NCBI GenBank assembly: GCA_003233305.1
Contig: QILI01000111.1
Location: forward strand, 1,322 to 65,321
Source of the DNA: Mizugakiibacter sp.
Lineage (GTDB): Bacteria > Pseudomonadota > Gammaproteobacteria > Xanthomonadales > Rhodanobacteraceae
Length of the DNA: 64,000 nucleotides
Direction of reading: 5' to 3'
Shown here: in pieces, positions 3,941 to 49,055 of the stretch
How positions within the stretch are numbered: position 1 is the stretch's first letter
How the letters are laid out: each line of letters starts with the position of its first letter
Notes under the pieces: model-generated
Seen by the model: the letters and a program-made list of their open reading frames with translations, nothing else
Database searches by the model: none
Told to the model about the DNA's origin: nothing
Translations under genes and position numbers: made by a program

Positions 3941-5326
3941 ATGCCGATTCTAGTACCGAGCTCAAAAACCCTTAAACCGCTCTCGATTTTACCTTTGGAA
4001 AGTGAGACGTTGGCGGCTGCATTGAAACACTTTCCGTTGGCTACGCGGCGTTGGATTCGCGGTAACGGTTTTGAAGCTACCCCGGGCACGCATCTATTGC
4101 TTCCCGACCCCAAGGGCGGGGTTGCCCAGGTGCTTGCTGGCGTTGACCCGGGTGACCCACTGTGGTCGATGGGGGCCTTGCCCCAGCTTCTGCCGGTGGG
4201 CGATTATCGGATCGAATTTGCGGAGGGGTCGAGTCAAGCAAAGTTGACTGAGCTGGGCTTTGCCCTGGGTGCATACCGATTCTTGCGATATCGACCCCGG
4301 GTTCGATCACTGCCCCAGTTGGTGGTTGAACCGGCAAGGTTGACCGAGCTGCTACCGTTGTGGCGGGCGGTGAGTCGGGTACGGGACCTGGTCAACACTC
4401 CGACGGAAGATCTGGGACCGGTCGAACTCGGTGACGAAGTTCGTCAGTTGGCCCAAGCGTACGATGGGCAGTTTCGCGAGTGGGTAGGTGAGAAACTCCT
4501 CAAGGGAGGGTTTCCGTCCATCCACGCCGTAGGGCGTGCCAGTCACCGGGCCCCACGCCTGCTCCAGCTTGCTTGGGGCAAGACCCGTGACCCCAAGCTG
4601 GTTCTGATCGGCAAGGGCGTGTGCTTTGACACCGGGGGGCTGAATCTGAAGCCTTCCGGTTCCATGCGTTGGATGAAAAAGGATATGGGTGGCGCGGCTC
4701 AGGCCCTGGCTCTGGCCGAGCTGGTGATGCAGGCGCGCTTACCGGTTCGGTTGACCCTGTTGATCCCGGCCGTAGAAAACGTGGTGGCAGGTAATGCCTA
4801 TCGTCCGGGTGAAGTACTCACCACCCGTGCTGGCCATACCGTGGAGGTCGACAATACCGATGCCGAAGGGCGGCTGGTTTTGTGTGATGCGTTGGCTTAT
4901 GCAGTCGAGCAGAAACCTGATCTGATCCTCGATTTTGCGACCTTGACCGGGGCGGCAAGGGTGGCTCTGGGCCCGGATCTGCCGGCACTATTCAGTAACC
5001 GTGATGCCTTAGCTAAAACCTTGCTGGCCATGGCCGGTTTAGAACATGACCCGTTGTGGCGATTGCCGCTATGGCAGCCTTATCGGGTCATGCTCGATTC
5101 GTATCTGGCCGATATCGCCAACAGTGGAGTTTCGCGTCATGCCGGGGCGATCACCGCAGCTCTGTTTCTGCAGGCGTTTGTACCCGACTCGGTACCGTGG
5201 ATGCATATGGATCTGTATGCCTGGAACGATAGCGAGCGACCCGGTCGGCCGCGGGGTGGTGAAGCGCAAGGGTTGCGGGCTTGTTTCGCTTTTCTGCAGC
5301 AGAAGTACGGAACGGCTCGAACATGA
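3941..5326 (+). CDS. M17 leucyl aminopeptidase family protein
   Basis: 'VCFDTGGLNLKP', 'MKKDMGGAA', 'NTDAEGRLVLCDAL' M17 metal-site motifs. Start moved to the internal ATG at 3941 (MPILVPSS). Confidence 0.85.
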   Translation: MPILVPSSKTLKPLSILPLESETLAAALKHFPLATRRWIRGNGFEATPGTHLLLPDPKGGVAQVLAGVDPGDPLWSMGALPQLLPVGDYRIEFAEGSSQAKLTELGFALGAYRFLRYRPRVRSLPQLVVEPARLTELLPLWRAVSRVRDLVNTPTEDLGPVELGDEVRQLAQAYDGQFREWVGEKLLKGGFPSIHAVGRASHRAPRLLQLAWGKTRDPKLVLIGKGVCFDTGGLNLKPSGSMRWMKKDMGGAAQALALAELVMQARLPVRLTLLIPAVENVVAGNAYRPGEVLTTRAGHTVEVDNTDAEGRLVLCDALAYAVEQKPDLILDFATLTGAARVALGPDLPALFSNRDALAKTLLAMAGLEHDPLWRLPLWQPYRVMLDSYLADIANSGVSRHAGAITAALFLQAFVPDSVPWMHMDLYAWNDSERPGRPRGGEAQGLRACFAFLQQKYGTART

Positions 5327-12387: not shown

Positions 12388-13476
12388 ATGTCCTTGGCCT
12401 TCACCCCGTTGCATGCCTTACACCGCGAACTCGGTGCCCGCATGGTCGATTTTGGTGGCTGGGAGATGCCACTGAATTATGGTTCGCAGATCGAAGAACA
12501 CCATACGGTGCGCCGTGCAGCAGGCATGTTCGATGTTTCGCATATGGCGGTGGTCGACCTGCAGGGGACGGCCGTTCGCATGTTGTTGCGGTATCTACTT
12601 GCTAACAGCGTGGATAAACTCAGGGCTCCGGGCAAAGCACTCTATAGCTGCATGCTCAACCAGAAGGGTGGCGTCATCGATGACCTGATCACCTATTTTT
12701 TGGATGAGCAACACTTCCGCATGGTCGTTAATGCTGCAACCCGGGATCATGATCTGGCGTGGATCCGGGCGCATGCTGCTGATTTTGAGGTAGAGGTGAC
12801 CGAGCGCAAGGATCTGGCGATGATCGCGGTACAGGGGCCACAGGCCCGTGAACGGGTGATCGCCTTGCTGCCAGAGGCGGATCGGGCTTGTGTCGAGGCC
12901 GCGTCACGCTTTACGGCTGTAGCAAGCGACGGGTTGTTTATTGCCCGTACCGGTTATACCGGGGAGGATGGTTTCGAGATTGTGCTACCGGTTGCGCGTG
13001 CTGAGCCTTTCTGGCGACAACTACTGGATGTCGGAGTGCGCCCGGCCGGGCTCGGAGCACGTGATACGTTACGGCTTGAGGCAGGTATGAATCTCTACGG
13101 CCAGGATATGGATGAAGACAGCACGCCACTGGAAGCCGGACTGGCCTGGACGGTAGCGTTTGACGAAGGGCGTGATTTTATCGGTCGAGGCGCCTTGGAA
13201 CAGCAGCGTAGCAGTGGAGTTCCGAGACAGATGCTGGGTCTGGTACTGGATCAAAAGGGCGTCTTGCGCCATGGCCAGCAGATTGATGCGATGTGCGGTA
13301 AGGGGGAGATTCTTTCCGGCAGCTTTGCACCGACCCTGGGAAAATCGATTGCCTTCGCCCGTTTACCGGCTGGTGATCCAGGTGAGGTCAGGGTACAGAT
13401 TCGTGGCCGCTTTCTCACTGTGCGGGTCGTGAACTATCCTTTTGTCCGCGCTGGCAAGCCGGCGGCGGGAGTTTGA
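12388..13476 (+). CDS. gcvT: Glycine cleavage system aminomethyltransferase T
   Basis: '[48 protein letters not shown]'. Confidence 0.95.
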
Positions 13477-13539
13477 GATCAGCCCACTCGATCTGGCCAT
13501 GGACTACAATTTACCTTCTTCGAATCAGGAGATCTGTGC

Positions 13540-13935
13540 ATGAATGAGATTCCCGGCGATCTTAAATTTCTCAAGTCCCATGAGTGGGCCCGTCTTGAAG
13601 AAGACGGCATCATTCGAGTGGGCATTTCCGATCACGCCCAGGGTCTGCTGGGTGATTTGGTTTACGTCGAGTTGCCCGCGGTCGGTGATCAGATTCAGGC
13701 TGGCAGCGCTTGTGCTGTAGTTGAGTCCGTCAAGGCGGCATCCGATGTGTATGCGCCGATTTCCGGCGAAGTTATCGAGATCAATGAAGCGCTCAACGAC
13801 AGGCCCGAAGTCATCAACGAGGATGCCTTCGGAGCAGGCTGGATTTTAGCGGTTCGTGCGGGCAATCCCGAAGAACTGAAAGCATTGATCGATCCGGATG
13901 CTTACGCTGAATTACTGGAAAGCGAAGACCACTGA
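13540..13935 (+). CDS. gcvH: Glycine cleavage system H protein
   Basis: 'YVELP', lipoyl-lysine motif '[13 protein letters not shown]'. Confidence 0.95.
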
Positions 13936-13990
13936 CCTTACCTAAAACAGACATCCCGCAGATTCGATGCGGGATGCCGTGGATTTACCC

Positions 13991-15349
13991 ATGCCTTTTA
14001 TCCCCCATTCTGAAAATGATTTACAGTCCATGTTGTCGGCCTTGGACGTGGACAGTATCGAGGATCTGTTTGATGAGATTCCGGCAGTATTGCGGCAGTC
14101 GAAGATCGACGGTGTACCGGTAGGCATGAATGAGATGCAGGTTACCCGGTTATTGAAAACACGTGCCCAAGAAGACCGGGTCGTGCTCAATTTTGCCGGG
14201 GCCGGGGCTTACGAGCATCATATTCCTGCCGCAGTTTGGGAGATTGTGGGTCGTGGTGAGTTCTATTCGGCCTATACCCCGTATCAGGCCGAAGCCAGCC
14301 AGGGTACATTGCAGCTCATCTACGAATTCCAGACCATGCTGACCCGACTTACCGGCATGGATATCAGCAATGCCTCGTTGTATGACGGGGCGACATCCCT
14401 GGCTGAAGCCGTATTGATGGCCGAGCGCTGTATGCGCCGTGGGCCACGGCGGGTCCTGGTGCCGGACAGCGTTCATCCTGCTTACCGCAAAACCTTAAAG
14501 GCTCTGCTTGGTTTGCAGCAAATCGAGGTGGTCGAGTTAGCTGTTAGTGAACACGGTGGCCGGCTGGATCCACAACAGCTGCCGTCTCATGAACAGCAGC
14601 CCTTCACCGCCTTGGTAGTTCCCCAGCCCAATTATCTGGGCATACTGGAGGATGTCGATGCATTGACCGATTGGGCACATAGCCAAGGGGGCATGGTCAT
14701 TGCCGTGATCAACCCGCTGGCATTGGCAGTGCTACAACCACCCGGGCAGTGGGGCCGTAAAGGAGCTGATATCGTCTGTGGTGAAGGACAGCCGCTGGGT
14801 GTGCCGCTATCCTCGGGTGGCCCCTATCTTGGTCTGCTTGCCTGCAAGCAAAACTATGTGCGGCAGATGCCCGGTCGTGTTGTGGGTCGCACCACGGATC
14901 TTGATGGCCAGGAGGGCTATGTGTTGACCCTGCAGGCTCGTGAGCAGCACATCCGCCGTGCCAAGGCGACCTCCAATATCTGCACCAACCAAGGGTTGCT
15001 GGTAACAGCCGCCACCATCCACATGGCCTTACTCGGCCCGCAAGGCTTGCGCAGGGTTGCCCAGCAGTCCATGCACAATGCCCGGATGTTACGTGATCGT
15101 CTACTAACCATTCCGGGCGTCAGTACTGTGTCTGACCATCCCATCTTTCACGAGTTTGCGTTGCGGTTGCCGAAACCGGTTGGTGAGGTCATTGAATGCC
15201 TGGCGGTCGAGGATCGCATCCTTGCCGGGGTAGAACTTGGTGAGGATTATCCCGGTCTGGGAAATGCGTTGCTGTTGTGTGCAACTGAAACCAAGACGGA
15301 AGAAGATATTACCTGGTTCACAGATCGGCTCGCCCGAATTCTTACCTGA
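13991..15349 (+). CDS. gcvPA: Glycine dehydrogenase (decarboxylating) subunit 1
   Basis: '[20 protein letters not shown]', '[14 protein letters not shown]', '[18 protein letters not shown]'. No gcvPB follows. Confidence 0.9.
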
Positions 15350-15455: not shown

Positions 15456-15471
15456 AGACGTCCAGACGTCT
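15456..15471 (+). promoter_or_regulatory. Two tandem MetJ metboxes (AGACGTCC AGACGTCT)
   Basis: 7/8 and 8/8 matches to the metbox consensus AGACGTCT, directly abutting, 132 bp upstream of the metJ-like start. A TATGAT -10-like hexamer lies at 15475-15480. Confidence 0.65.
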
Positions 15472-15555
15472 ATTTATGATAGGTTTTTATACCTATTTTC
15501 CATCGCCGGACTCGACAGGATGGGAAATCGAAACTTCAGTTATCGCTGAAATTGA

Positions 15556-15584
15556 TTGACAGTGGAAAAATGACGCAATAGTTT
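15556..15584 (+). promoter_or_regulatory. Possible sigma70 promoter for the metJ-fusion gene
   Basis: TTGACA (15556-15561), 17-nt spacer, TAGTTT (15579-15584). Pattern only. Confidence 0.3.
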
Positions 15585-15602
15585 CTGCACGGGAGCGACC
15601 GA

Positions 15603-16457
15603 ATGGTGACTACGACGTACATCGACCCATACATCGAACACGGATCGAAAACCGAACTGGTGCGTAAGGTTACGGTTTCGATTCCGTTGCATGTACTGCA
15701 CTTGGTGGTCGATGAGCGTACCCGCCGCCAAATTGGTAATCTCAGACACGCCACAATTAGTGATCTACTGTGCGAGGCGTTTCTGCACGCTTTCACCGGG
15801 CAACCACTGCCAACTGATGAGGAGCTGAGACGAACCATGGTTACGATCAAAAAGTCTGCTGTAAAAAAGTCCGCCGTACGTAAATCGATGGCGAAGAAAT
15901 CCACTACTACCAAGAAGCCGGTTGCCAAGAAACCCATGGCAAAGAAACCGGCAGTGAAAAAATCGGTGAAAAAGCCGGTTAAGAAGGTGGTCAAAGCTAG
16001 GGTTTCAGTAGCAGGTAGAACTGCAGCTAAGAAGCCCACAGTTAAGAAAACATCGGCAAAGAAATTAGTAAAGAAAGTGGTAACCAAGCAAGCTGTCAAG
16101 AAGGCGGCTGGCAAAGCGGTCAAGAAGCCGGTTGCGAAAAAGCCGGTGAAGAAGGTGGCTAGCAAGGTGACTAAGAAACCCGCCGCAAAGAAATTGGTAA
16201 AGAAAATAGTCAGTAAAGCGGTCAAGAAACCGGCCACGAAAAAATCGGTGAAGAAGGTGGTCAGCAAGGCGGTCAAGAAATCGGTTGCAAAAAAGCCGGT
16301 CAAGAAAGTGGTCAGTAAAGCGGCTAAGCAACCGGCTGTGAAAAAGACCGCTAAGAAAGTGGTGGCTAAGCCGGTTGCGAAAAAGAAAGCCACGGTTCGT
16401 AAGTCTAAGGGGAAAACGGCACCGGCACCGATCAAGCCGGTGGCAGTCGTTATCTGA
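15603..16457 (+). CDS. metJ: MetJ methionine repressor core fused to a ~205-aa Lys-rich histone H1/AlgP-like tail
   Basis: Residues 5-77, '[73 protein letters not shown]', are near-identical in pattern to E. coli MetJ. The rest is (A/S/P/V)xKK repeats with no acidic or aromatic residues. Confidence 0.85.
16110..16364 (+). repeat. Five consecutive 51-bp (17-aa) coding repeats within the Lys-rich tail
   Basis: [17 protein letters not shown] / [17 protein letters not shown] / [17 protein letters not shown] / [17 protein letters not shown] / [17 protein letters not shown]. Confidence 0.8.
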
Positions 16458-16869
16458 GACTTGGCAGCTTGTTGGACTATGGGGGTAAATAGCGAGGCAG
16501 AGGAACGATGCGCCGGAAAGTTTCCGATTTGAGGTAATGAGTGATTCTATTATCACGATAATTCGGGACGATCCGGTCTGCTGCTTTACTGGCGCGGCCG
16601 ATTTATGCATAGCCTGGCAAACGGTTCGAACCGTGGAAATATTTTTCCATAATAGACCCCGGAATCCTTCCCGACGATGCCCAGTGTCGGGAAGGATCCT
16701 GTAGATTGAGGTGGCCCAACTACACGGGGCGTGTCATTTTGTGTCAGAGATGTTTTTTGCATTGCCCACGGCGTATATTGGGGGTAGTGTTGGTGGCAAG
16801 CTGGCTCAATGGGGGTTGGCCGGTGCAATGCGCCGTTTGCTATCTGTTTTCAGAATTTTGAGAAGAACT

Positions 16870-17934
16870 ATGGTTAAGTTTTGCCATCAATGGGGTCGCT
16901 ATGGTTTCTTAGCCGTGGCATTGGGCGGTTTTGTGATACTGGGGGCCGGTTGCTCGCATTCGGGTCAGACTCCACAAAATAAATCCAAGGTAGCGGTGAA
17001 AGCTGCTACCGCACCGGCTAAAGCAGCGACCGCACTCGCCACACCAGCCACAGCAACTACAGTGCCAGCTACGCTAGCCAAAGCCGCGACCGTTGCACCG
17101 CCATCCGCTGAGCTACGAATGCAGGCAATGGGTGTGCACGAACTCTTGTCCAGCGCACAAGAAGCACTCAAGGATGATCGCCTGGTAGCCCCGGCTGGCG
17201 ATAACGCCATTGAGTATTATCTCATGGTGCTGAAAAAGCAGCCCGATAGCCGGGTGGCTCAGGATGCCTTACGTGAGACCTTCCCTTTCGCAGCTCAAGC
17301 AACGGATCAGGCGATCAACCAGAAGAATTTTCCGGAGGCACAGCGTGAGATCGGTTTACTTGCCAGGGCTGACCCAACCAACTACACCTTGACCATATTG
17401 CGTTCCAAACTGGATGCGCAACGCAAGCTAGTCGCCCAGCAGCAGAATGCTCAGCAGTTGGCTGCACAACAGAAGCTTGCCGCGCAGCAAGCGTCACAGA
17501 AGGCTCAGGAGGCCCGGCCTCCACCCCAGAAAAATATTGCCGAGATCGCTGCGGCGGCTAAGGTGGTGGAGCAGAAAGCGGCCACTGAGGCAGCAGCTCG
17601 TTTGCGTCAGCAGCTGGCGGCACAACAGAAGTTTGCCGCGCAACGCGCCGCACGAAATCACGGCGCGGTAGTGATCCGTATGGTGCCTCCCAAATTTCCA
17701 CTGAGTGCAGCCCGACGGGGCTTACAGGGGTGGGTGAATATACAGTTCACCGTGAAGACCGATGGTTCGGTCGGCAATGTACATGTAGTTCGTTCTGATC
17801 CACCGCGAGTGTTTGATCGTGCAGCGATTATTGCGGTCAGGCAATGGCGATTCAAACCGGCTGTTATCAACGGGCGGTCTACTGCCACTGTACACGAACG
17901 AAAGATCCAATTCACCCTGCCTAAAGCACCTTGA
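16870..17934 (+). CDS. TonB C-terminal-domain protein, probable lipoprotein
   Basis: Lipobox 'VILGAGC'. Ala/Thr/Pro-rich linker and Q-rich coiled region. C-terminal TonB domain 'PPKFPLSAARRGLQGWVNIQFTVKTDGSVGNVHVVRSDPPRVFDRAAIIAVRQWRFKPA'. Start uncertain (16828 or 16870). Confidence 0.7.
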   Translation: MVKFCHQWGRYGFLAVALGGFVILGAGCSHSGQTPQNKSKVAVKAATAPAKAATALATPATATTVPATLAKAATVAPPSAELRMQAMGVHELLSSAQEALKDDRLVAPAGDNAIEYYLMVLKKQPDSRVAQDALRETFPFAAQATDQAINQKNFPEAQREIGLLARADPTNYTLTILRSKLDAQRKLVAQQQNAQQLAAQQKLAAQQASQKAQEARPPPQKNIAEIAAAAKVVEQKAATEAAARLRQQLAAQQKFAAQRAARNHGAVVIRMVPPKFPLSAARRGLQGWVNIQFTVKTDGSVGNVHVVRSDPPRVFDRAAIIAVRQWRFKPAVINGRSTATVHERKIQFTLPKAP

Positions 17935-28362: not shown

Positions 28363-28613
28363 TAAGTGTTTCTGCTACTTCGTAGCCATCGTCACGCCTC
28401 CAAAAAAGCCATCGTAGTCATTTCTATATTAGTCGATATGTGCGCTGCAACATCGGGTTTCAGGGGTAAGCCAATGTGAACAGGGGATTCCCAGACGGTT
28501 AGAAACTTGTTACAGTCGCCGTGACCAGGGTTTGGACGGCCTGTTCAGGCCGCACACGGATGCTGCATTTCATAACGACACATGTGTCACCTCACCGACG
28601 TTGGAGAGTCAGT

Positions 28614-31463
28614 ATGAACTTCGATACGAATAAACTTACCTCGGCTGTACGCCTAGCTTTGACGCTGGGTGCAGTGGCCGCGGTAGGCGTGGCCGGCAGC
28701 GCCATTGCGCAGACTGCCGGTAGCGCCACGACCCAGAACAAGCAGGCCAAGCAACTCAAGACCATCGTGGTTACCGGTTCGCGCATTCGCCGCGTGGACA
28801 TCGAGACGGCTAACCCCATTTTTACCATTTCACGTCAGAACATCACCCAGAGTGGCGCGGTCACCCTGGGCAATCTGATCCAGTCGATGCCGTCTATTTC
28901 CGGCCAGGCCACCAATCCCTACGTCAATAATGGCGGCGGAGATGGTGCGGCGTCGGTATCCCTACGCGGCCTTGGTTCACAGCGTACCTTGATGCTTATT
29001 GATGGCCACCGTGTCGTCAATAATGACATCAACCAGATTCCGGCAGCGATGGTTGAGCGGGTTGAAGTGCTGAAAGATGGCGCTTCGTCAGTGTACGGTT
29101 CCGATGCCATCGGCGGCGTGATCAACTTCATCATGCGCAAGAACTTCCAGGGTGCCGAGTTCAGCGCCAATTATGGAATCACCGATTACAGCGATGGCGC
29201 CACTCAAGGCGAGTCCTTCATGTTCGGCCAGACTACCGACAAGGGCAGTATTGTCGCCGGCATCTCCTACAACAAGTTTAATGCCATTTCTTCCAATAAC
29301 CGGAGTTTCTCCAACAAGGCGCTATATCTGGTCTCCGGTAGTGTCATGTCCTTTGGTTCCAGCCGCATCCCGAACGGACGTCTGGTCTTTGGTAACCAGG
29401 ATCTGGTCCGCATCACCGGCACCAACGGGACATCCCTGTCCGACTACAGACCTCGCGTGTCCTCGGATACTTTTAATTATCAGGCTCAGAACCTGATCCA
29501 GACGCCACAGGAACGCACCGATTTGTTCGTGATGGGCCATTATCAGTTGACCGATAACGTGCAGGCCTATCTGGATATCTTCCACAACAAGACCACCTCG
29601 CATTCGGCCGTGGCCCCGTCGTTGGCCGATACCGGTATCCCCAGTCCGCTGGTGATCTCAGCACTGAGTTACTACAATCCGGCAGGCGTCGCATTCTCCA
29701 ATGCCTCCGGCAATCGCTTCGAGGTTCGTTTTACCGGCCTGGGGCAGCGTATATCTCAGTACGGCACCACCACCGACCAGGTGTTCACCGGTTTGCGGGG
29801 TAATGTCGGCGATACCTCCTGGCAGTGGGATGCCGATATCAATTACGGTCACTTCTCTCAGGGTTACCAGGAACGAAACTACGTCAATCTTAAACAGGCC
29901 AACCAGGCATTTGGCCCATCGTTCATGAATAGTTCGGGTGTGGTGGTTTGCGGAACCCCAGGTAACGTGATCTCAGGTTGTACGCCCATCAACATTTTCA
30001 ATATCAATGCTCCGGCTCAGGCGGCACTGCTCAAGAAGTTCACTGCAAATCCGTTCTTCCAGTCCATTTATACCAGTCGTCAGGCCTCGTTTAACGCCAA
30101 TGGCGATCTGTTTGAGCTGCCTGCGGGCACCGTTAGCTTGGCCGTGGGATCCTTGTACCGTAAGGAATACACCAATTCATCGGTGAGCTCTGACATTCAG
30201 ATCAACCAGTTTACGGGTACCTGCCCGCTGGGAACCGGTTGTTCGTCTGGCTTGCAGGGTGGCTTCAGTGTCAAGGAAGCCTACGCCGAGGTATTGATTC
30301 CCATCCTCAAGGACATGCCTTTGGCCCATGCTCTGAATGTGGACATCGGCACCCGCTATTCGAAGTATTCCATTGCCGGTAGCACTACCAACTCCAAGAT
30401 TGCTGTGGAGTGGCGGCCGATTAAGGACTTGCTGCTGCGTGGTACCGTTTCGCAGGTTTTCCGTGCCCCTTCGATCAGTGATGTGTTTGCCGGCCCACAG
30501 AACAGTGCGCCGACCTTTGTCGATCCGTGCATTGGGTATATTCCAGGTGTCAGTCCGGCCTCTGAAAATGCGGCCTGCGGTGCTTCGACCGGTGCGACGG
30601 CAATTCCAAGTACCGGTATTGCAGCACCTTCCGTTTCGCAGACTAATTCGATCGTTTCCGGTTCGAAGTACGCAGGGTATTCCCTTAAGCCTGAGTTCGG
30701 TAAGAGCTTCGATTTCGGCTTTGTCTACGATCCCAGCTGGTTGCCGGGCTTTTCGACTAGCGTCGATCTGTGGCGCATTTATCTGAATGACACCATTGTG
30801 AGCGTTCAGGCGCAAACCGTAGCCGATATTTGCTTCAATAATCCGGCTAGTGCGTTTTGTGGCCTGATCCATCGTATTCCGATCGGTCGGATTTCCAATA
30901 TCTTTACGCCAACCGTTAATCTGGGACGGCTCGATACCTCGGGTGTCGACTTTGGATTCCGTTATCGCTTGCCGCACTTCAATACCTTCGGCTTTAATCC
31001 GGGCAATCTCTCGGTACGCTTCAATAGCACCTATATTGCCAAATATACGGACATTCCGGTACCGGGTGTATCCAGCGTTGCGCCGATCGTGAATGCCGGT
31101 AAGTACACTAGCCAGTTCGGTAACTTTGCCCGCTGGCGCGCTCTGACAACGGTTAACTGGACCCGTGGACCGTGGAGTGCGGTGTGGCGGATGCGCTACA
31201 TTGGTAAGATCGGTGTGCCGATCCAGGACTTCGGTACTGGTGCGTGGACGCAATTCAATTTCGGCTCCTATACCTACAATGATTTCTCATTGGGTTACGA
31301 GATTGCCCCGATCAATACCATGTTCCAGATCGGAATCAACAACGCGTTCAACAAGCAGCCACCGATCTTCACCCAGAACGTGGTGATCAACGCTAATACC
31401 GATGTCAATACTTACGATGTCATTGGGCGTTATTACTGGGCGCGGGCGACGGTCAAGTTCTAA
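28614..31463 (+). CDS. TonB-dependent outer-membrane receptor
   Basis: GGAGAG RBS and signal peptide ending 'AIA|Q'. Plug 'TIVVTGSRI', 'VEVLKDGASSVYGSDAIGGVINFI'. C-terminal 'YYWARATVKF'. Confidence 0.9.
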   Translation: MNFDTNKLTSAVRLALTLGAVAAVGVAGSAIAQTAGSATTQNKQAKQLKTIVVTGSRIRRVDIETANPIFTISRQNITQSGAVTLGNLIQSMPSISGQATNPYVNNGGGDGAASVSLRGLGSQRTLMLIDGHRVVNNDINQIPAAMVERVEVLKDGASSVYGSDAIGGVINFIMRKNFQGAEFSANYGITDYSDGATQGESFMFGQTTDKGSIVAGISYNKFNAISSNNRSFSNKALYLVSGSVMSFGSSRIPNGRLVFGNQDLVRITGTNGTSLSDYRPRVSSDTFNYQAQNLIQTPQERTDLFVMGHYQLTDNVQAYLDIFHNKTTSHSAVAPSLADTGIPSPLVISALSYYNPAGVAFSNASGNRFEVRFTGLGQRISQYGTTTDQVFTGLRGNVGDTSWQWDADINYGHFSQGYQERNYVNLKQANQAFGPSFMNSSGVVVCGTPGNVISGCTPINIFNINAPAQAALLKKFTANPFFQSIYTSRQASFNANGDLFELPAGTVSLAVGSLYRKEYTNSSVSSDIQINQFTGTCPLGTGCSSGLQGGFSVKEAYAEVLIPILKDMPLAHALNVDIGTRYSKYSIAGSTTNSKIAVEWRPIKDLLLRGTVSQVFRAPSISDVFAGPQNSAPTFVDPCIGYIPGVSPASENAACGASTGATAIPSTGIAAPSVSQTNSIVSGSKYAGYSLKPEFGKSFDFGFVYDPSWLPGFSTSVDLWRIYLNDTIVSVQAQTVADICFNNPASAFCGLIHRIPIGRISNIFTPTVNLGRLDTSGVDFGFRYRLPHFNTFGFNPGNLSVRFNSTYIAKYTDIPVPGVSSVAPIVNAGKYTSQFGNFARWRALTTVNWTRGPWSAVWRMRYIGKIGVPIQDFGTGAWTQFNFGSYTYNDFSLGYEIAPINTMFQIGINNAFNKQPPIFTQNVVINANTDVNTYDVIGRYYWARATVKF

Positions 31464-31691: not shown

Positions 31692-33503
31692 ATGACCATT
31701 TTTTCAGACGACGCACTGTTTCAAGCCCTCAACGCGCAGCGCTACAAGGAGGCTGAGCAAGCAGCTCAGGCCAGGCTGGCCAGTAACGATGACGATGTGC
31801 AGGCCTTGCTGGTTCTTGCTGTGGCTCTGAGTAGCCAAGAGCGATGGGTCGAGGCCTTGCCCTTGTATCGTCGTTTAACTGAACTGCAACCCCGGCAAGC
31901 CGGGCATTTCAGCAACCTGGCAACGATTTTGCGTCAAAGCGGCGATCTCAAAGGTGCTGAAGCCATGTATCGGCGGGCCCTGGCCTTGCATCCGGGTGAT
32001 CCGGTACTGCTTTCCAATATGGGTTTGTTGCGCTGGCAGCAGGGTGATATGGTCGAAACACGGGAGCTGATGCTGGCTGCATTCCAGGCCGATTCCGGTC
32101 TTCCAGAGCCGCGTATCTATGGGGCACTGGCCTGCCATGCCTGTGCCGATGTTGACACCGCCAGGCATCTACTGGTCGGCTGTGAAGGCTGGCCGCATCT
32201 GGGTGAGGATTTTGAGGTAGACCTTGCCACAGCGTTGATCCAGATTGAGAGGCTTGAACAAGCCGAAACCCGCCTCAAACAGTTGATGCACCACTATCCG
32301 CAATCCAACAGGGCCCGTCTGCAACTGGCTGCGTTGTACGAACGCTCCAATCGCATCGCCGAGGCCGAGGCGTTACTAGATATTGCCGGACCAGATATCC
32401 CATCCAGTAGCGAAGAACTTTCTCTACGGGCGGCCCTGCTGATGCGTTCTGACCATCCTCAGCCGGCCCGTTTACTTTATGAGCAGATTTTGCAACAGGG
32501 TAATGCTACGGCCCCGAATGCCCCCTATTATTTTCTGCTGGCGAAATGTTGTGATCGCCTGGGCGATAGCACTGCAACGATGCAGGCGTTGCGGAAGGGG
32601 CATGCAGCCCAACTCGAGTCGGCCTTACGTCTGGAACCGGAACTCGCCGATCCTGTCAGTGAACCGCTGGCAGTCGAGAGCCATCGGGTGCCCGAAGCAG
32701 GCCGGCTGTGGGGTCCTATCGAGGCGCCCGATGAGGCGGCCTCACCGATCTTTGTGGTGGGCTTTCCCCGTTCCGGAACGACCTTGCTCGAGCAGATGCT
32801 CGACGCTCACCCTGATCTGCAGTCCATGGACGAGCAGGCATTTATACAAGATGTCATAGAAACCATGGAGAAGGCGGGCTATGCCTATCCAGGTGATCTG
32901 GGACGTATCGATAGCGCCACGGCCGAGCAGCTGAGAAAGGTCTACTGGTCACACGTTGCGACGGTTGTTACGCTTGATGCTGGCCAGCGCTTGGTTGACA
33001 AGAATCCTCTAAATATACTCAGGTTGCCTATTCTGATGCGGATATTCCCGCAGGCTCGGGTTATCCTGATGCTGCGCCACCCGGCGGATGTGATACTCAG
33101 TTGCTACATGCAGAGTTTCCGCGCTCCGGCGTTTCAGATTCTTTGCTCGACGTTACAAAGATTGGCCCGAGGTTATGTCAGCACCATGCAACTTTGGTTT
33201 GACCATATCGAACTGCTGCATCCTCAGGTGCTGGAGATTCGTTACGAGGATCTGCTGGACGATCCGCTCAAACATACTCGCTTGCTCGGTGATTTTCTGG
33301 GCTTGCAGGATGTTTCACCGCTGCTTCGGTTTGACGAGCATGCGCGTGCCAAGGGTTACATCAGCACCCCGAGCTATACTCAGGTGGTGAAACCCTTGAA
33401 CAACAAGGCGGTGGATCGGTGGCAGCGTTATCACGAACAGCTGGATCCGCTGCTGCCGATTCTCAAACCGATTATGGATCATTGGGGGTATCACCCGGAA
33501 TGA
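31692..33503 (+). CDS. TPR-repeat + sulfotransferase-domain protein (paralogue 1)
   Basis: N-terminal TPRs. PAPS 5'-phosphosulfate loop 'FVVGFPRSGTTLLEQMLDAHP'. Also 'VDKNPLNILRLPILMRIFPQA', 'YEDLLDDP'. Confidence 0.8.
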   Translation: MTIFSDDALFQALNAQRYKEAEQAAQARLASNDDDVQALLVLAVALSSQERWVEALPLYRRLTELQPRQAGHFSNLATILRQSGDLKGAEAMYRRALALHPGDPVLLSNMGLLRWQQGDMVETRELMLAAFQADSGLPEPRIYGALACHACADVDTARHLLVGCEGWPHLGEDFEVDLATALIQIERLEQAETRLKQLMHHYPQSNRARLQLAALYERSNRIAEAEALLDIAGPDIPSSSEELSLRAALLMRSDHPQPARLLYEQILQQGNATAPNAPYYFLLAKCCDRLGDSTATMQALRKGHAAQLESALRLEPELADPVSEPLAVESHRVPEAGRLWGPIEAPDEAASPIFVVGFPRSGTTLLEQMLDAHPDLQSMDEQAFIQDVIETMEKAGYAYPGDLGRIDSATAEQLRKVYWSHVATVVTLDAGQRLVDKNPLNILRLPILMRIFPQARVILMLRHPADVILSCYMQSFRAPAFQILCSTLQRLARGYVSTMQLWFDHIELLHPQVLEIRYEDLLDDPLKHTRLLGDFLGLQDVSPLLRFDEHARAKGYISTPSYTQVVKPLNNKAVDRWQRYHEQLDPLLPILKPIMDHWGYHPE

Positions 33504-33516
33504 ATCTTTCCGGGTT

Positions 33517-35349: not shown

Positions 35350-36664
35350 ACCGATGCTGCAACAGGCTGCCGATCTACGTAACCAGGGCCGTTGGGGTGC
35401 AGCGGCCCAGCAAGTGATTGAGCTTGCCAGGGCGGATATTGGCTTGCCGCTGAAAATGGAGTGTGTCAACTTTCTCAAGAATATCGAGCGGGGCGAGTCG
35501 GCACTATCAATCTGTCGGCAGCTTCTCGACCAGCCGGTAGATCCTCAACGCCCCATGATATTGGCCAGGATGGGCAGCCTGGAGCAGTCGCTGGGGCGCT
35601 TTGCCGAGGCCCGAGGGCACTATCTGGAAGCCATTGAAGCCGGCTTTGATCTCGATGCCTGGCCTATCCATGCGGCACTCGCTCACCTGCAGCGTTATAC
35701 CGATAGCAGCCATCCCGACTTGGCTCTGTTCGAGCAACTGGAGGCCAGACCGCAGTTGGGGACCTCGGCCCGAACGGCGTTATGGTTTGCACGGGCCAAG
35801 GCCTTTGACGATCTGGGTGAAGATGCACAGGCGGCGCGCTGGTTGCGGCAAGCCAACCAGCAGGAAAGACAGTTGCGGCCCTGGGATCGCAGTGCCTGGC
35901 AGGCGGGTATCGAACGAGCCAGGAGTTGGTCGGCAGGAGCATTGAAAGTAGAAGCTCATCAAGGGCGCCCGCTGTTCGTGCTCGGCATGCCGCGCAGTGG
36001 TACCACCTTGTTGGCCGAGCGTCTGGGGCGTCATGCTGAGATCGCCCAACGCGGCGAACTGCCATTTCTCGACTATGTGGCCAGGCAATGGGGGTATGCC
36101 GGATTACCCGGCGATACCAGCAATCTGCAGCAGGCCACCCACTTCTATAGAGCTCATCTGTACCAGGATGATGCACCGCGCAAGGTGTACCTGGACAAGA
36201 ATCCCATGAATCTGCGTTACCTCGGCCTGATCGCCAGCTTGTTCCCGGATGCGGCGGTGATCGTCTGTCGACGTGAACCACGCGATACTGCGCTGTCACT
36301 GTATTTTCAGCAATTCGCCCATACCGATTATGGCTTTGCTCAGGATTTTTCTGATATTGCCGAGGTGGCCCGGGATGCGGCAAGCCTGTTTGAGCAGACC
36401 CGGGCTGGAGGCGGTTTGGATTTATACGAAGTCGAATACGAGGCCCTGGTAGCGGAGCCACAAACGACCCTGGATTCGTTGTTGGACTGGCTGGGCCTGG
36501 ACTCGTTCGCAGCCATGCGTACTGGAACTGAGATCACCTCTATTGGAACGGCCAGTCTATGGCAGGCTCGCCAGGATATTTACACGCGTTCGATAGGCCG
36601 TTGGCAACGCTATGCCCAGCTGTTGCCGGAGTTGTTGGAACTCCCTTCGGTACCACCCCACTGA
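35339..36664 (+). CDS. TPR-like + sulfotransferase-domain protein (paralogue 3, shorter and more divergent)
   Basis: 'FVLGMPRSGTTLLAERLGRH', 'LDKNPMNLRYLGLIASLFPDA', 'IGRWQRY'. The start overlaps the paralogue 2 stop (ATGAGGCCTGA). Confidence 0.75.
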   Translation: MRPEPMLQQAADLRNQGRWGAAAQQVIELARADIGLPLKMECVNFLKNIERGESALSICRQLLDQPVDPQRPMILARMGSLEQSLGRFAEARGHYLEAIEAGFDLDAWPIHAALAHLQRYTDSSHPDLALFEQLEARPQLGTSARTALWFARAKAFDDLGEDAQAARWLRQANQQERQLRPWDRSAWQAGIERARSWSAGALKVEAHQGRPLFVLGMPRSGTTLLAERLGRHAEIAQRGELPFLDYVARQWGYAGLPGDTSNLQQATHFYRAHLYQDDAPRKVYLDKNPMNLRYLGLIASLFPDAAVIVCRREPRDTALSLYFQQFAHTDYGFAQDFSDIAEVARDAASLFEQTRAGGGLDLYEVEYEALVAEPQTTLDSLLDWLGLDSFAAMRTGTEITSIGTASLWQARQDIYTRSIGRWQRYAQLLPELLELPSVPPH

Positions 36665-45477: not shown

Positions 45478-45501
45478 AGACATATAGACGTCTATACCGC
45501 T
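45478..45501 (+). promoter_or_regulatory. Three tandem metbox-like octamers upstream of metX
   Basis: AGACATAT AGACGTCT ATACCGCT = 6/8, 8/8 and 5/8 matches to AGACGTCT. They overlap a possible TTGATT-N18-TATAGA promoter. Confidence 0.55.
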
Positions 45502-45539
45502 ATTGACGGATGATGGGTGTTCACGTAAAGTTACTCCCG

Positions 45540-45662
45540 AAACTCATCGAGACCGGCGGAGGGACAGGCCCTTTGATGCCGGGGCAACCACGCAACCGCA
45601 AGGCTGCGTACGGTGCCAACTCCTGCGGAGAGCGCATGTTGCGTTCGCCGAGAGATGAGTCA
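45540..45662 (+). promoter_or_regulatory. SAM-I (S-box) riboswitch aptamer in the metX leader
   Basis: P1 CTCATC...GATGAG. GAGACCGGCGGAGGGACAGGCCCTTTGATGCCGGGGCAACC. P3 hairpin ACGCA..TGCGT. ACGGTGCCAACTCCTGC...GAGAGATGAG. Matches the conserved S-box core. Confidence 0.85.
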
Positions 45663-45743
45663 TCCGTTCTGGCGCTATCGCCTGGTAACGGGTTGGCTGC
45701 TCCGGTTCTCCACAGGCTCGATGCTTGCTACAGGAGATCCGCC

Positions 45744-46790
45744 ATGACCTTTGAAAATTCTTCCAGCTTTGCTTCCGAATCCATCGGTATCGATATACCG
45801 GCGTGTCGCAATCATTCGCAGCAGCGTGGTGTGCCGGGGGTGATGGCCAGTAAGAAACTACGGATTCGTCCCAAGTACGCTCCCTCCGATCCGGTTGAGG
45901 TAGAGCTTGCCTACCAACTGGTGGGTGCAGCGGGAGCACCTGTGGTGCTGGTGCAGGGAGGTATTTCGGCGCATCGATCGGTCTGTGCGCACCATGCCGA
46001 TGCGGCACCGGGCTGGTGGGAACCGCTGGTGGGTATCGGCAAGGGTATCGACCTACGGCACTTCCGGGTGCTGTCTATCGATTGGCTGGATGCGGAGGCT
46101 TGTAGTGCGCAGTCGGTGTCTAGTGAGGATCAGGCGGAGGCTCTGGCCGGTCTGCTGGATGCCCTGTTTATCGACAAGGTTCACACTTTTATCGGTGCAT
46201 CCTATGGGGCCATGGTGGGCTTGGCCCTGGCCCTGCGGCACCCGCAGCGTCTGGATCGCCTGGTATTGATCGCTGGCGCCCACCGACCGCATCCGCTGGC
46301 CAGTGCCCAGCGTGCCATCCAGCGCGATATCGTTCGTCTGGGCCTGGCAAGCGGGCAGGTCGATCAGGCCATGTCCCTGGCGCGGCAACTGGCCATGACC
46401 ACCTATCGTGGGGCGAGTGAAATGGCGCAGCGCTTTCAGGGTGAGGCCACACAGATTGATGGCCGTTGGCAGCGGCCGGTGGAAGCATGGCTGCAGCGTC
46501 ACGGTGAGCGTTTCGCGCGATCCTTTTCAGCACGACACTTTTTGGCACTTTCCGAATCGATCGATTTGCATTCGATCGAGCCGGAGACGATCCAGGTGCC
46601 GACCCGGTTGATCGGCTTCAGCTCCGATCGGCTAGTACCTCTGGCCGATTTGTTTGAATTGCAACAGCGGCTGGGGGTGACCGCTTCGCTTGAGGTCCTC
46701 GACTCGCCCTATGGCCACGACGCCTTCCTCAAAGAGTATGACCGACTCACCCCTATCCTGCGTGATGCACTGGACCACGGAATCCACTGA
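45744..46790 (+). CDS. metX: Homoserine O-acyltransferase (MetX type)
   Basis: 'VVLVQGGISAHRS', nucleophile elbow 'GASYGAMVGLALA', 'SDRLVP', 'SPYGHDAFL'. Start placed after the riboswitch (AGGAG RBS, ATG 45744). Confidence 0.85.
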   Translation: MTFENSSSFASESIGIDIPACRNHSQQRGVPGVMASKKLRIRPKYAPSDPVEVELAYQLVGAAGAPVVLVQGGISAHRSVCAHHADAAPGWWEPLVGIGKGIDLRHFRVLSIDWLDAEACSAQSVSSEDQAEALAGLLDALFIDKVHTFIGASYGAMVGLALALRHPQRLDRLVLIAGAHRPHPLASAQRAIQRDIVRLGLASGQVDQAMSLARQLAMTTYRGASEMAQRFQGEATQIDGRWQRPVEAWLQRHGERFARSFSARHFLALSESIDLHSIEPETIQVPTRLIGFSSDRLVPLADLFELQQRLGVTASLEVLDSPYGHDAFLKEYDRLTPILRDALDHGIH

Positions 46791-46791
46791 A

Positions 46792-47967
46792 ATGAGCAAA
46801 CCCTCTTCCACCACTTGTGCGGTACGCGCTGGTATCGAGACGGATACCCAGCACGGTGCCATTGTTCCTCCTCTGCACCTTTCCACCAATTACAGCTTCG
46901 AAGCCCTGGGGTGCAAACGGGCCTACGATTACTCGCGTAGTGGCAATCCGACCCGGGATTTACTGGCCGGAGCCCTGGCAGAACTTGAGGGTGGAGCTGG
47001 GGCGGTGGTGACCGCAAGCGGCATGGCGGCAGTCGCTGTGGCGCTGGAGCTGGTACCGCAGGGCGGCCAGGTGATTGCTTCGCATGATTGTTATGGAGGC
47101 ACCTGGCGATTGCTCGATGCCTGGGCTCGCAAGGGTCGCTTTTCTGTACGTTTTGCCAATCTGTCCGATCCCGCCATTTTGTCTGGATTGGCTGGTGAAA
47201 AGCCGTCGCTGATCTGGGTCGAGACTCCTTCGAACCCGTTGCTACGGATTACCGATATCCGCCATGTGGTGCGGATCGCCCGGCAGCTTGGTGCGCTATG
47301 TGTGGTCGACAACACGTTTCTTTCTCCGGCCTTGCAGCAACCACTGCAATTGGGCGCGGATGTGGTGGTGCATTCGACCACCAAATATATCAATGGTCAC
47401 AGCGATGTGGTGGGGGGTGCGGTGGTGGCCCGTGAGTCCGGGCTGGCTGAGCAACTGCACTGGTGGGCCAACTGCCTTGGACTTACCGGGGCCCCGTTCG
47501 ACAGCTTTCTCACTTTGCGAGGTTTACGCACCCTGGGGCCACGGCTGCGTGCCCATCAGGAGAATGCCCAGGCGGTGGCACAATTGTTGGCCAGCCACCC
47601 TTGGGTGCGCCGGGTGCACTACCCCGGGCTGCCCTCGCATCCTCAATATACGCTGGCTAGCAGCCAGCAGAATGGCCCCGGGGCCATGCTGAGTTTTGAG
47701 ATGGAAGGGGGTGAGGAGAGCATCAAGGCTTTCCTGCACGGCTTGCAGTGGTTTTCATTGGCCGAGTCGCTGGGTGGGGTGGAAAGCCTGGTGGCGCACC
47801 CGGCCACTATGACCCATGCGGCCATGGCTCCGGAAGCCCGTCGTAACGCCGGGATTGCCGATGGCCTGTTGCGACTGTCGGTGGGTATTGAGGATACCGA
47901 TGATCTGCTCCGCGATCTCGCTGCCGGTCTGGTCCGGGCCGAGGCCGCGGCCCGGGTTGCTGCATGA
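46792..47967 (+). CDS. metB: Cystathionine gamma-synthase (Cys/Met PLP family)
   Basis: Collinear with E. coli MetB as recalled: 'YDYSRSGNPTRDLLAGALAELEGGAGAV', 'HDCYGGTWRL', PLP-Lys 'HSTTKYINGHSDVV', 'LAESLGGVESL'. Confidence 0.9.
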   Translation: MSKPSSTTCAVRAGIETDTQHGAIVPPLHLSTNYSFEALGCKRAYDYSRSGNPTRDLLAGALAELEGGAGAVVTASGMAAVAVALELVPQGGQVIASHDCYGGTWRLLDAWARKGRFSVRFANLSDPAILSGLAGEKPSLIWVETPSNPLLRITDIRHVVRIARQLGALCVVDNTFLSPALQQPLQLGADVVVHSTTKYINGHSDVVGGAVVARESGLAEQLHWWANCLGLTGAPFDSFLTLRGLRTLGPRLRAHQENAQAVAQLLASHPWVRRVHYPGLPSHPQYTLASSQQNGPGAMLSFEMEGGEESIKAFLHGLQWFSLAESLGGVESLVAHPATMTHAAMAPEARRNAGIADGLLRLSVGIEDTDDLLRDLAAGLVRAEAAARVAA

Positions 47968-49055
47968 ACGCGGTGCTGGACCGAGCGGCACTTGCTCGAT
48001 GTCAGGCCACCACGCTGAGGGCCGAGTCGTGCGCGCTGGTACTCCTCGGTACGGGGGGAGTGGGTGGCGCCTTCCTTAAGTTACTCAGTACCCCGGCGGC
48101 CAATGCTCTGCGATTGGTCGGGGTGGCCGATTCGAAGCGACAACTGGTTGCAGCTACCGGCCTGAGCCGTGACGGCTTGAGTGAGCGACTGGCTGTCCAG
48201 GGTGTCCAGCGCGACAACTCTGCCTTGCTTGCGGCCCTGGATGCCGCTGCTGCGCCGATCAAGGTTGTTATTGATGCAACGGCCAATATTGATCTGGCCG
48301 CCCAGCATCCTGAGTGGCTGGCCCACGGTATCCATGTGGTCACCGCCAACAAGGCTCTGGCCGGCGGCAACCTGGCTGGCTGGCAGACCCTGCAGGCGGT
48401 CCGGACACCGGACTCTGAATATGGTGATACTGCTACGGTTGGAGCGGGTTTGCCGGTACTTTTCATGGTGCGGCGCTTACGCGCTTGCGGCGACGGTCTG
48501 CTCGGTCTGCAAGGGGTATTTTCAGGTTCGCTGTCCTGGCTGTTCAACCAGTACGACGGCAGTCGGCCGTTTTCGGAACGGCTGCACGAAGCCCGGCGCC
48601 TGGGCTACACCGAACCCGATCCCCGATTGGATCTGTCCGGGGAAGATGTTGCACGCAAGCTGTTGATCCTGGCCCGTACCGCCGGTTGGGCCCTGGACCG
48701 GGATTCGATACAGGTGGAAAACCTGGTACCTGGGCCGTTACGCACTTTGCAGCGTGCAGCGTTTCTGGCCCGGGCAGAACAACTCGACGCACCGTTGGCT
48801 CGTCGGCAGGCCCAGGCCCAGACCCATGGGGCCGTGCTGCGTTATCTGGCCTGTGCCGATGGGCCGTGCCGTGCTCGCGTCGGGTTGGTCGAGGTGCCAG
48901 CCAGTCATCCCGCCGCCCATTTGCAAGGTTCCGATAATCTGTTCATGCTGCGCACCCAGCGTTATTCCAGGCAGCCGTTGGTGATTCAAGGGCCCGGTGC
49001 CGGGCCCGAGGTCACCGCCCAGGCTTTGCTGGGTGATGTGCTGGCGCTGAGTTGA
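47964..49055 (+). CDS. hom: Homoserine dehydrogenase, ThrA/MetL-type module without an aspartokinase domain
   Basis: 'LLGTGGVGGAFLKLL', 'VVTANKA', 'TVGAGLPV', 'GVFSGSLSWLFNQ', 'GYTEPDPRLDLSGEDVARKLLILAR'. ATGA overlap with metB. Confidence 0.85.
   Translation: MNAVLDRAALARCQATTLRAESCALVLLGTGGVGGAFLKLLSTPAANALRLVGVADSKRQLVAATGLSRDGLSERLAVQGVQRDNSALLAALDAAAAPIKVVIDATANIDLAAQHPEWLAHGIHVVTANKALAGGNLAGWQTLQAVRTPDSEYGDTATVGAGLPVLFMVRRLRACGDGLLGLQGVFSGSLSWLFNQYDGSRPFSERLHEARRLGYTEPDPRLDLSGEDVARKLLILARTAGWALDRDSIQVENLVPGPLRTLQRAAFLARAEQLDAPLARRQAQAQTHGAVLRYLACADGPCRARVGLVEVPASHPAAHLQGSDNLFMLRTQRYSRQPLVIQGPGAGPEVTAQALLGDVLALS

Follow-up and report, generated by a model that had tools for sequence, protein, structure and literature searches.

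A candidate SAM-sensing MetJ repressor with a polycationic, H1-like tail in the Rhodanobacteraceae/Lysobacterales

The window analysed here, a stretch of DNA of 64,000 nucleotides, contains a gene whose product begins as a methionine repressor of the MetJ family and continues as a long, lysine-rich chain. The question raised by this locus is whether such a protein still works as a repressor that senses S-adenosylmethionine (SAM), and what the polycationic part would add to it. Searches covering 8 million papers retrieved none that describes a MetJ with a Lys-rich or H1-like tail. A 2014 survey of methionine regulons reported MetJ in six gammaproteobacterial groups and in none of the four Xanthomonadales genomes examined, and proposed SamR for the Xanthomonadales instead (PMC4239095); the present locus extends MetJ to a lineage where that survey saw none in four genomes.

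The MetJ core and the polycationic tail

The metJ-tail gene (15603..16457, forward strand) comprises 284 codons and a stop codon, as indicated by the ORF translation, the MetJ HMMs and orthologues of the same architecture; it starts with ATG, and the motif GGGAG is located 8 nt 5′ of this codon. HMM searches clearly indicate the relationship of its N-terminal part to MetJ. The Pfam MetJ model PF01340 matched residues 5–90 with an E-value of 2.1e-36 and 124.2 bits (cut-off 25), and the NCBIfam MetJ equivalog model NF003622 gave 128.7 bits (cut-off 110). A phmmer search against the PDB retrieved the MetJ structures 1cma and 1mj2 (E-value 1e-30), and residues 5–80 aligned without gaps with residues 6–81 of Escherichia coli MetJ, 52 of 76 positions being identical (68%). 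The original prediction, which regarded residues 1–78 as MetJ-like, is borne out by these searches, and sequence comparison confirms the core as a genuine member of the MetJ family.

The ribbon-helix-helix core (residues 1–78; 15603..15836, forward strand), delimited with the alignment to 1cma, AlphaFold 2 (AF2) modelling and a Foldseek search, contains the β-strand KVTVS, helix A (residues 29–44) and helix B (residues 52–65), and its pI is 6.5. The similarity to MetJ stops at about residues 78–80, the alignment to 1cma ending at residue 80, and the C-terminal segment with helix C (approximately residues 80–104 in E. coli) is absent, as had also been proposed. Residues K23, T25, R40, R42, R43 and the segment E59–G67 (E. 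coli numbering) are identical in the window protein, where K22, T24 and R39 correspond to the base-reading Lys23 and Thr25 and to Arg40 of E. coli and are invariant in 45 orthologues; the whole β-strand that carries the base-reading residues is invariant across orthologues as well. The sequences of the SAM site, EAFLHAFTG (helix B, 59–67) and ERTRR (helix A, 39–43), are the same as in E. coli; the EAFLHAFTG segment is the one nearest to the SAM sulfonium, and most of the key residues are invariant in the 45 orthologues. The roles of the conserved MetJ residues have been described elsewhere (PMC2775130, PMC1282579). Two positions differ: at Thr37 of E. coli, implicated in dimer–dimer cooperativity of MetJ on adjacent boxes, the window protein has Val and most of the clade has Ser, and at Asn53 the window protein has Ile.

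The AF2 monomer model, made with a 45-sequence alignment, contained a folded core with a pLDDT of 72–84, a moderately predicted helix at residues 72–96, and a tail with a pLDDT mostly below 50; Foldseek matches for the model were MetJ structures only. The tail is predicted from this model to be intrinsically disordered.

The low-complexity polycationic tail, recognised by composition, charge and AF2 modelling, occupies residues 79–284 (206 aa; 15837..16454, forward strand). Its first residue, Met79, does not vary within the clade, and its last residues form the hydrophobic PIKPVAVVI. The tail is composed of 73 Lys, 40 Val, 33 Ala, 15 Pro, 14 Ser, 13 Thr, four Ile, four Arg, three Met, three Gly, two Leu and two Gln; hence 35% of its residues are Lys and there are no Asp, Glu, Phe, Tyr, Trp, His, Cys or Asn, the net charge is +77 and the pI is about 12. 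The corresponding C-terminal part of E. coli MetJ has a net charge of −4. The anticipated tail of about 205 residues of (x-KK) type, with about one-third Lys and neither acidic nor aromatic residues, is thus found almost to the letter. KK pairs occur once per 4–5 residues; the main units are xVKK and xAKK together with a 17-residue super-repeat, and KPAA, KPVA and KPAV tetrapeptides occur one, four and one times, respectively. The super-repeat makes up a diverged tandem repeat (residues 171–254; 16113..16363, forward strand), in which TRF found a period of 51/102 nt with 70–77% matches, and which corresponds in the protein register to five copies of the 17-aa KAVKKPxAKKxVKKVVS. The minus-strand ORFs at 15536–16435 and 16065–16610 were taken to mirror the repeated Lys codons on the opposite strand and not to be genes.

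The tail had also been likened to H1, AlgP and Hc1-type proteins. Its composition and the disorder predicted by AF2 agree with this likeness, but the models of HC2/H1-like proteins scored below their cut-offs (PF07382, 30.3 bits versus 40; NF038052, 17.2 versus 135; NF038053, 19.7 versus 80), and a search of 5.8 billion proteins with the tail only, a low-complexity query that is hard to search with, yielded a single match, the orthologue P0001 (E-value 8.7e-4). For these two reasons, the resemblance to H1, Hc2 and AlgP is one of composition, with no evidence in the sequences of common descent. The origin of the tail by fusion with a free-standing H1-like gene is likewise unsupported, since the tail-only search gave P0001 alone. 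No second Lys-rich tail turned up when the rest of the window was searched, and 468 kb of related loci contained only a few short K-rich ends, all in Luteibacter; the tail is therefore not a proteome-wide habit.

Orthologues and gene neighbourhood

The original prediction had treated the combination of a MetJ core and an H1-like tail as an architecture without known examples, and this part of it did not hold. A search of 5.8 billion proteins revealed more than 120 matches of 156–244 aa combining PF01340 with a weak PF07382 (HC2) match, and precomputed Pfam annotations show the MetJ+HC2 combination too; the architecture is already present in the databases by the hundreds under the plain name of MetJ. 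Where names are given to the tailed matches, they read MetJ or “met regulon transcriptional regulator MetJ” (NCBI, JGI); several hundred entries named “MetJ” are in fact two-module proteins. The named sources in this search are Rhodanobacter, Dyella, Frateuria, Fulvimonas and Metallibacterium, and the tailed homologues share a junction ending in x-M-A-x-KK, followed by (A/P/V)xKK repeats.

A genome scan in which each species was represented once (185,579 representatives) yielded 467 relatives, and the loci of the best 80 were analysed. All of these 80 belong to the Rhodanobacteraceae/Lysobacterales or are unclassified MAGs, and the genera among them include Luteibacter, Dokdonella, Rudaea, Tahibacter, Mizugakiibacter, Oleiagrimonas and Pinirhizobacter; the closest MetJ core among the species representatives, which do not include the genome of the window, is 84% identical, and a look-up of the exact window protein in public assemblies gave no record. 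Every complete ORF in these best 80 loci has a K/R/A-rich tail of 32–184 aa with a K+R fraction of 0.29–0.50, which answers, for the best 80 of the 467 relatives, the question about the lengths and the clades of the tailed homologues; the window tail, with its 206 residues, is the longest seen and owes its enlargement to the five copies of the 17-aa unit. The neighbourhood is also shared: gcvH is located upstream in 73 of the 80 loci and a gene for a TonB_C protein downstream in 60, with gcvPA in between in 15. The nearest relative, P0001, is 89% identical over the first 122 residues and has the same gene order as the window, gcvH-gcvPA-metJ-tonB_C; its tail, however, has 78 residues, about 128 fewer than the window tail, and the gap falls in the repeat region. 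Of the named genera represented in the fetched loci, Mizugakiibacter stands closest to the window by its GcvH (77%) and GcvPA (72%).

Clustering of the MetJ family at 50% identity gave 65 representatives, among which genuine long C-terminal extensions were of the Lys-rich type only, the sole exception being an unrelated protein of 211 aa whose extension is not basic; other long MetJ entries among the 65 were set aside as frameshifted enterobacterial sequences or mis-called starts. The helix C segment is kept in other representatives of the family, whereas the Lys-rich tail takes its place throughout this clade. Core-only forms of MetJ exist as well, namely an 81-aa protein (P0148) and a protein ending with ...ELRKMIK (P0122). 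Taken together, these comparisons show that the MetJ+tail architecture is a clade-wide trait of the Rhodanobacteraceae/Lysobacterales, a family of soil bacteria together with its relatives.

Met boxes, promoter-like elements and the SAM-I riboswitch

Two tandem met boxes, AGACGTCC AGACGTCT, together AGACGTCCAGACGTCT, are located at 15456..15471, 132–147 nt upstream of the ATG of metJ; they match the consensus in 15 of 16 positions and represent a putative autoregulatory operator. The tandem met-box consensus has three matches in the 64-kb window versus 0.1 expected, and these occur only in front of metJ and the metX operon. In the related loci, a box dimer matching at least 13 of 16 positions occurs at −165 to −190 in 36 of 80, with a density of 1.70 per kb versus 0.0023 per kb elsewhere; the clade form of the operator, (RGACGTCY)x2 with at most three mismatches, was found in 59 of 70 loci at a median position of −174 (4.6 per kb versus 0.07 per kb elsewhere). 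The clade-wide presence of boxes in front of metJ points to putatively retained autoregulation.

A promoter-like sequence TTGACA-N17-TAGTTT, read from the sequence, lies proximal to metJ (15556..15584, forward strand); an element of the form TTGACA-N17-TAGyTT is conserved across the upstream regions of related metJ loci in the clade, and its function as a promoter is inferred. The met boxes are located about 85 nt upstream of this element and are followed by an AT-rich, −10-like sequence, an arrangement pointing to a regulated promoter at the distal site and a constitutive one next to the gene. An Rfam scan of the 260 nt upstream of metJ with a permissive threshold revealed no RNA family; hence no known riboswitch corresponds to the conserved leader.

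The second set of boxes belongs to the metX-metB/Z-hom operon (45843..49055, forward strand), identified with NCBIfam and homoserine dehydrogenase models, the only methionine operon in the window and, together with metJ, one of the only two methionine-related transcription units found there. The metX product is a homoserine O-succinyltransferase (NF006449, 369.8 bits), metB/Z encodes an O-succinylhomoserine thiol-lyase (NF006450/TIGR02080) and hom was assigned with homoserine dehydrogenase models. Judging from the first position of the model alignment, the true start codon of metX probably lies close to 45843; a listed ORF of 426 codons starting from 45510 runs through the riboswitch leader. 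Three tandem met boxes, AGACATAT AGACGTCT ATACCGCT, giving two overlapping consensus matches, are located at 45478..45501 and adjoin the −35 of a promoter-like sequence TTGACG-17-TAAAGT (45503..45531), which is followed by a SAM-I riboswitch in the metX leader (45541..45661, forward strand; Rfam RF00162, 84.2 bits versus a gathering threshold of 44.4).

The boxes, the promoter and the leader are kept in five close relatives (L083–L087; 89–94% MetX identity), while the sequence further upstream diverges. In a sixth relative with 96% MetX identity, the locus sequence ends inside the boxes. No met boxes occur in the relatives whose MetX is about 45% identical; the SAM-I riboswitch is present both in the close relatives and in the scanned distant ones that lack the boxes, so the riboswitch looks older than the MetJ control at metX, which would have been added on top of it. 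The sequence data make the metX-metB-hom operon a probable target of the tailed MetJ.

Possible role of the tail and comparison with known systems

The reading that we consider rather probable is that the window protein is a working MetJ-type, SAM-sensing repressor, in which an H1-like tail stands in place of the acidic C-terminus. Because the met boxes are conserved in the clade, it can be concluded from the sequences that the tailed MetJ has probably kept met-box recognition, autoregulation and control of methionine genes. The dimeric ribbon-helix-helix core would read tandem AGACGTCT met boxes and sense S-adenosylmethionine, while the acidic C-terminal segment (helix C, net charge −4) appears to have been exchanged for a disordered polylysine tail carrying +77 per chain. 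Such an exchange should give a much higher non-specific and salt-sensitive affinity for DNA; the tail probably makes the repressor bind DNA non-specifically, through contacts with the backbone that would have no sequence preference, and may thereby raise the overall DNA affinity and hold the repressor on the nucleoid. SAM would remain the methionine signal at the met boxes. At metX, both initiation, through MetJ, and the leader, through the SAM-I riboswitch, would read SAM, so that one methionine operon would be read twice by the same metabolite, via a protein and via an RNA. Perhaps the tail also spreads occupancy from the met boxes into adjacent promoters, since the boxes sit upstream of the −35 or abut it and do not cover −10/+1.

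Some observations serve as counterpoints to this reading. The loss of helix C, which belongs to the SAM-responsive dynamic network in simulations (PMC2775130), may alter or abolish the SAM response; the distance of about 85 nt between the metJ boxes and the promoter-like element is awkward for direct repression; and the replacements of Thr37 and Asn53 also count against it. In E. coli MetJ, SAM shifts the operator Kd from about 10 µM to about 4 nM (PMC3267017), an effect credited largely to the electrostatics of the positive sulfonium charge (PMC1282579), although this explanation is debated (PMC2775130). MetJ is thus the textbook corepressor system acting largely via one positive charge far from the DNA, and a MetJ with 77 extra positive charges per chain offers a natural test of electrostatic activation; it raises the questions of whether SAM gating persists and how specificity is maintained against a large non-specific affinity.

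A broader role as a nucleoid protein gated by SAM, in which the tailed MetJ would coat or bridge DNA genome-wide through its tail while SAM occupancy of the core changes the tightness or the place of binding, seems unlikely to us; if it were true, not only met genes but also the compaction of the chromosome and transcription at large would respond directly to the methyl-donor status of the cell, and a link between SAM and the nucleoid is possible. In a narrower and likewise unlikely variant, the tail would let a repressor bound at upstream boxes spread and silence promoters tens of bp away, a way of acting that ribbon-helix-helix repressors are not known to use. Equally doubtful is a change of function into a nucleoid-associated protein that binds DNA essentially independently of sequence, with the core left mainly as a dimerisation or SAM-binding module and the met genes mainly under the riboswitch. 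The SAM-I riboswitch that is already present at the metX operon, the charge of +77 per chain and the conserved consensus-like promoter element, compatible with high expression, would all suit such a protein, as would the behaviour of a “truncated MetJ homolog” of Rhodanobacter, which gave over 600 DAP-seq peaks but no motif in a 2026 preprint and was set aside there (bioRxiv 10.64898/2026.06.06.730518). That protein most likely carries the tail, since every Rhodanobacter orthologue examined does. Its DAP-seq result fits tail-driven non-specific binding and could equally reflect lost sequence specificity; of the roles that the original prediction considered possible (nucleoid association, altered cooperativity, a function beyond methionine), the first gains indirect support from it; the tail may explain the failure of this homologue in DAP-seq. 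DAP-seq is, however, an in vitro assay, and the accessible part of the preprint does not mention added SAM. Against the repurposing also stand the invariance of the base-reading K23 and T25 and of the entire β-strand, the clade-wide enrichment of met boxes, 70- to 700-fold, at a fixed place upstream of metJ, and the conservation of the metX boxes while the flanking DNA drifts. As a hint in favour of the working repressor, the MetJ protein has been detected, and found to be regulated, in proteomes of Rhodanobacter R12 (bioRxiv 10.1101/2024.10.24.620115).

It is somewhat less probable still that the tail binds another polyanion, such as polyphosphate granules or RNA, and sequesters or localises the repressor without strengthening its operator binding. 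AlgP, with a comparable Lys/Ala/Pro tail, goes to polyphosphate granules through this tail (PMC9239181), and binding of this kind would be purely electrostatic; nevertheless, the neighbourhood of the gene (gcvTH-PA, TonB_C) contains no pointers to polyphosphate or RNA metabolism, and the available DAP-seq report describes abundant binding to DNA.

A third alternative, that the tail is a neutral low-complexity expansion that arose by repeat slippage and is tolerated on a truncated MetJ, has in our opinion little chance of being correct. The lengths do range from 32 to 206 aa, the sequences cannot be aligned between genera, the tail contains tandem repeats, the close relative P0001 manages with 128 fewer residues and a MetJ of about 81 residues can consist of the core only. 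These comparisons indicate that the tail length changes fast via the gain and loss of short repeats. At the same time, no complete orthologue lacks the tail, hardly any acidic residues occur in it, and Lys is abundant in it through AAA and AAG codons although the GC content of the window is 57.6%; a neutral expansion would not keep its composition across a bacterial family. The Lys-rich tail at such a GC content, together with the clade-wide exclusion of acidic residues, argues for selection on charge and not on sequence, and only the composition of the tail appears to be under selection.

We reject the view that the long ORF is an artefact of assembly or of a frameshift, or a merger of two genes (a metJ core and an H1-like gene), given a continuous frame, a junction and tail shared by over 100 proteins in the databases and by every complete orthologue from the 80 independent genomes, complete ones among them, mostly with conserved synteny, and repeats so diverged (70–77% identical) that a collapsed-repeat misassembly is unlikely; the single in-frame ORF first proposed stands on these grounds. 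The invariant Met at the junction follows GAGGAG, and an internal start giving an additional tail-only product is conceivable though highly improbable; GAGGAG simply encodes a conserved Glu-Glu.

Returning to the preferred reading, a MetJ-type repressor with an added polycationic tail, a comparison with known systems specifies what is shared and what is new. With E. coli MetJ (PF01340; 1cma/1cmb/1cmc), the window protein shares the core, the base-reading Lys and Thr, the ERTRR sequence, AGACGTCT tandem operators and, probably, autoregulation. Unlike E. coli MetJ, it lacks the last approximately 25 residues, which are acidic and include helix C, and has the disordered +77 tail instead; it carries Val in place of Thr37 and Ile in place of Asn53, and its probable target operon also has a SAM-I riboswitch. 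The tailed MetJ proteins of Rhodanobacter, Dyella, Frateuria, Luteibacter, Dokdonella and Metallibacterium (for example, WP_082823529.1 and WP_114340672.1) share the junction, the type of tail, the synteny and the upstream boxes; their tails of 32–184 aa are mostly Ala-rich (AAKKPAAKK), while the 206-aa window tail is rich in Val and Ser, includes the 17-aa repeat five times over and finishes with a hydrophobic stretch.

In mycobacteria, HupB/MDP1, Ku and topoisomerase I have Lys/Ala/Pro-rich C-terminal tails that boost the affinity of the DNA-binding domain; the partners of these tails are architectural and repair proteins and not a small-molecule-gated, operator-specific repressor. Chlamydial Hc2 and the H1-like proteins of Burkholderiales (PF07382, NF038052, NF038053) are similar in composition, with HMM scores below the cut-offs; they are free-standing nucleoid proteins, and the tail-only search found none of them. 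A further parallel is offered by AlgP and PhaF of Pseudomonas, which also combine a folded N-terminal domain with a long, disordered Lys/Ala/Pro tail of large positive charge; the tail region of AlgP binds DNA in vitro, that of PhaF is thought to do so, and the KPAA-repeat tail region is a mutational hot spot (PMC9239181). The window protein is not homologous to them in sequence, and its tail has x-x-KK units instead of KPAA arrays. An H1-like tail on a DNA-binding domain is thus a known principle, exemplified by AlgP and PhaF, and the difference lies in the N-terminal partner, which in the window protein is a sequence-specific, metabolite-sensing repressor.

Two predicted SAM inputs at the metX operon

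Control of the metX-metB-hom operon (45843–49055, plus strand) by S-adenosylmethionine is predicted to be double, with three met boxes, the tandem 8-bp MetJ operator sites, adjoining the -35 element and a SAM-I riboswitch (Rfam RF00162, 84 bits) located in the leader, both within 45478–45661. Both elements are retained at metX of close relatives; MetX relatives of ~45% identity retain the riboswitch and lack the met boxes. The 'metX' ORF, as read, comprises 426 codons, of which the first ~111 (45510–45842) span the riboswitch leader and are probably untranslated. The alignment with the MetX model starts at residue 129 of this ORF, and M112 (nt 45843) is a plausible candidate for the start.

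The upstream region and neighbours of metJ

A promoter-like element, TTGACA-N17-TAG(C/T)TT, was found upstream of metJ (15556–15584), and its sequence, together with the flanking AAAATCAAT, is very strongly conserved between genera. Among the 80 related metJ loci (one genome per species, best 80 of 467 relatives), the element lies ~20–70 nt 5' of the ATG. Since the met boxes of metJ, followed by an AT-rich -10-like sequence, are located a further ~85–100 nt 5' of this conserved element, the arrangement of motifs suggests the presence of two promoters.

The genes gcvT-gcvH-gcvPA (12388–15349) lie immediately 5' of metJ, and gcvPB is not adjacent to gcvPA in the window. This placement of glycine cleavage (one-carbon) genes beside the methionine repressor gene is conserved, gcvH being present in 73 of the 80 loci. 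The gene 3' of metJ (16711–17934) codes for a protein of 407 aa that has a TonB C-terminal domain and a long, low-complexity Ala/Gln-rich linker, and it is syntenic with metJ in 60/80 related genomes. Elsewhere in the window, a TonB-dependent receptor gene (28521–31463) is followed by three tandem paralogous genes encoding sulfotransferase proteins of 603, 610 and 461 aa (31692–36664), two of them with TPR repeats.

The core/tail junction and the tail end of MetJ

In all orthologues examined, Met occupies the junction between the MetJ core and the polycationic tail (codon 79, 15837–15839, in the window), in the contexts RRTM-, RRDM-, RRM-, RRIM- and RRPM-. A Shine–Dalgarno-like GAGGAG (15820–15825), which doubles as code for a conserved Glu-Glu, precedes it; this Met may be a mere relic, or it may still serve as an internal start and give rise to a tail-only protein. 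Two long F/L/T-rich minus-strand ORFs over the tail (15536–16435, 299 aa; 16065–16610, 181 aa) are most likely not genes, being the reverse-complement shadow of repeated AAG/AAA codons.

The representative search also returned P0176 (732 aa), composed of ~9 near-identical copies of a ~70-aa unit. It matched the helix A region of MetJ weakly, in nine places (E 6.6e-8, 30% identity), and this protein is probably spurious or a product of repeat assembly.

In Luteibacter (loci L002, L018, L027 and L054; minus strand, ~5000–5290), a second protein, encoded ~2 kb 3' of metJ, has a short Lys/Ala/Pro-rich C-terminal tail (...KAKAKAAPKKAATKKKKP); short basic tails are therefore carried by at least one other protein in this genus.

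The tail of the window MetJ ends in the hydrophobic PIKPVAVVI (16428–16454), that of its nearest orthologue, P0001, in PVKPVAVIV, and those of P0100 and L012 in PMKVAALAL. A short hydrophobic C-terminal peptide of this kind closes the polycationic tail in Metallibacterium as well as in the sub-lineage of the window, whereas Rhodanobacter-type MetJ tails have a basic end (...AKAKK); the hydrophobic end recalls non-polar C-terminal degradation tags.
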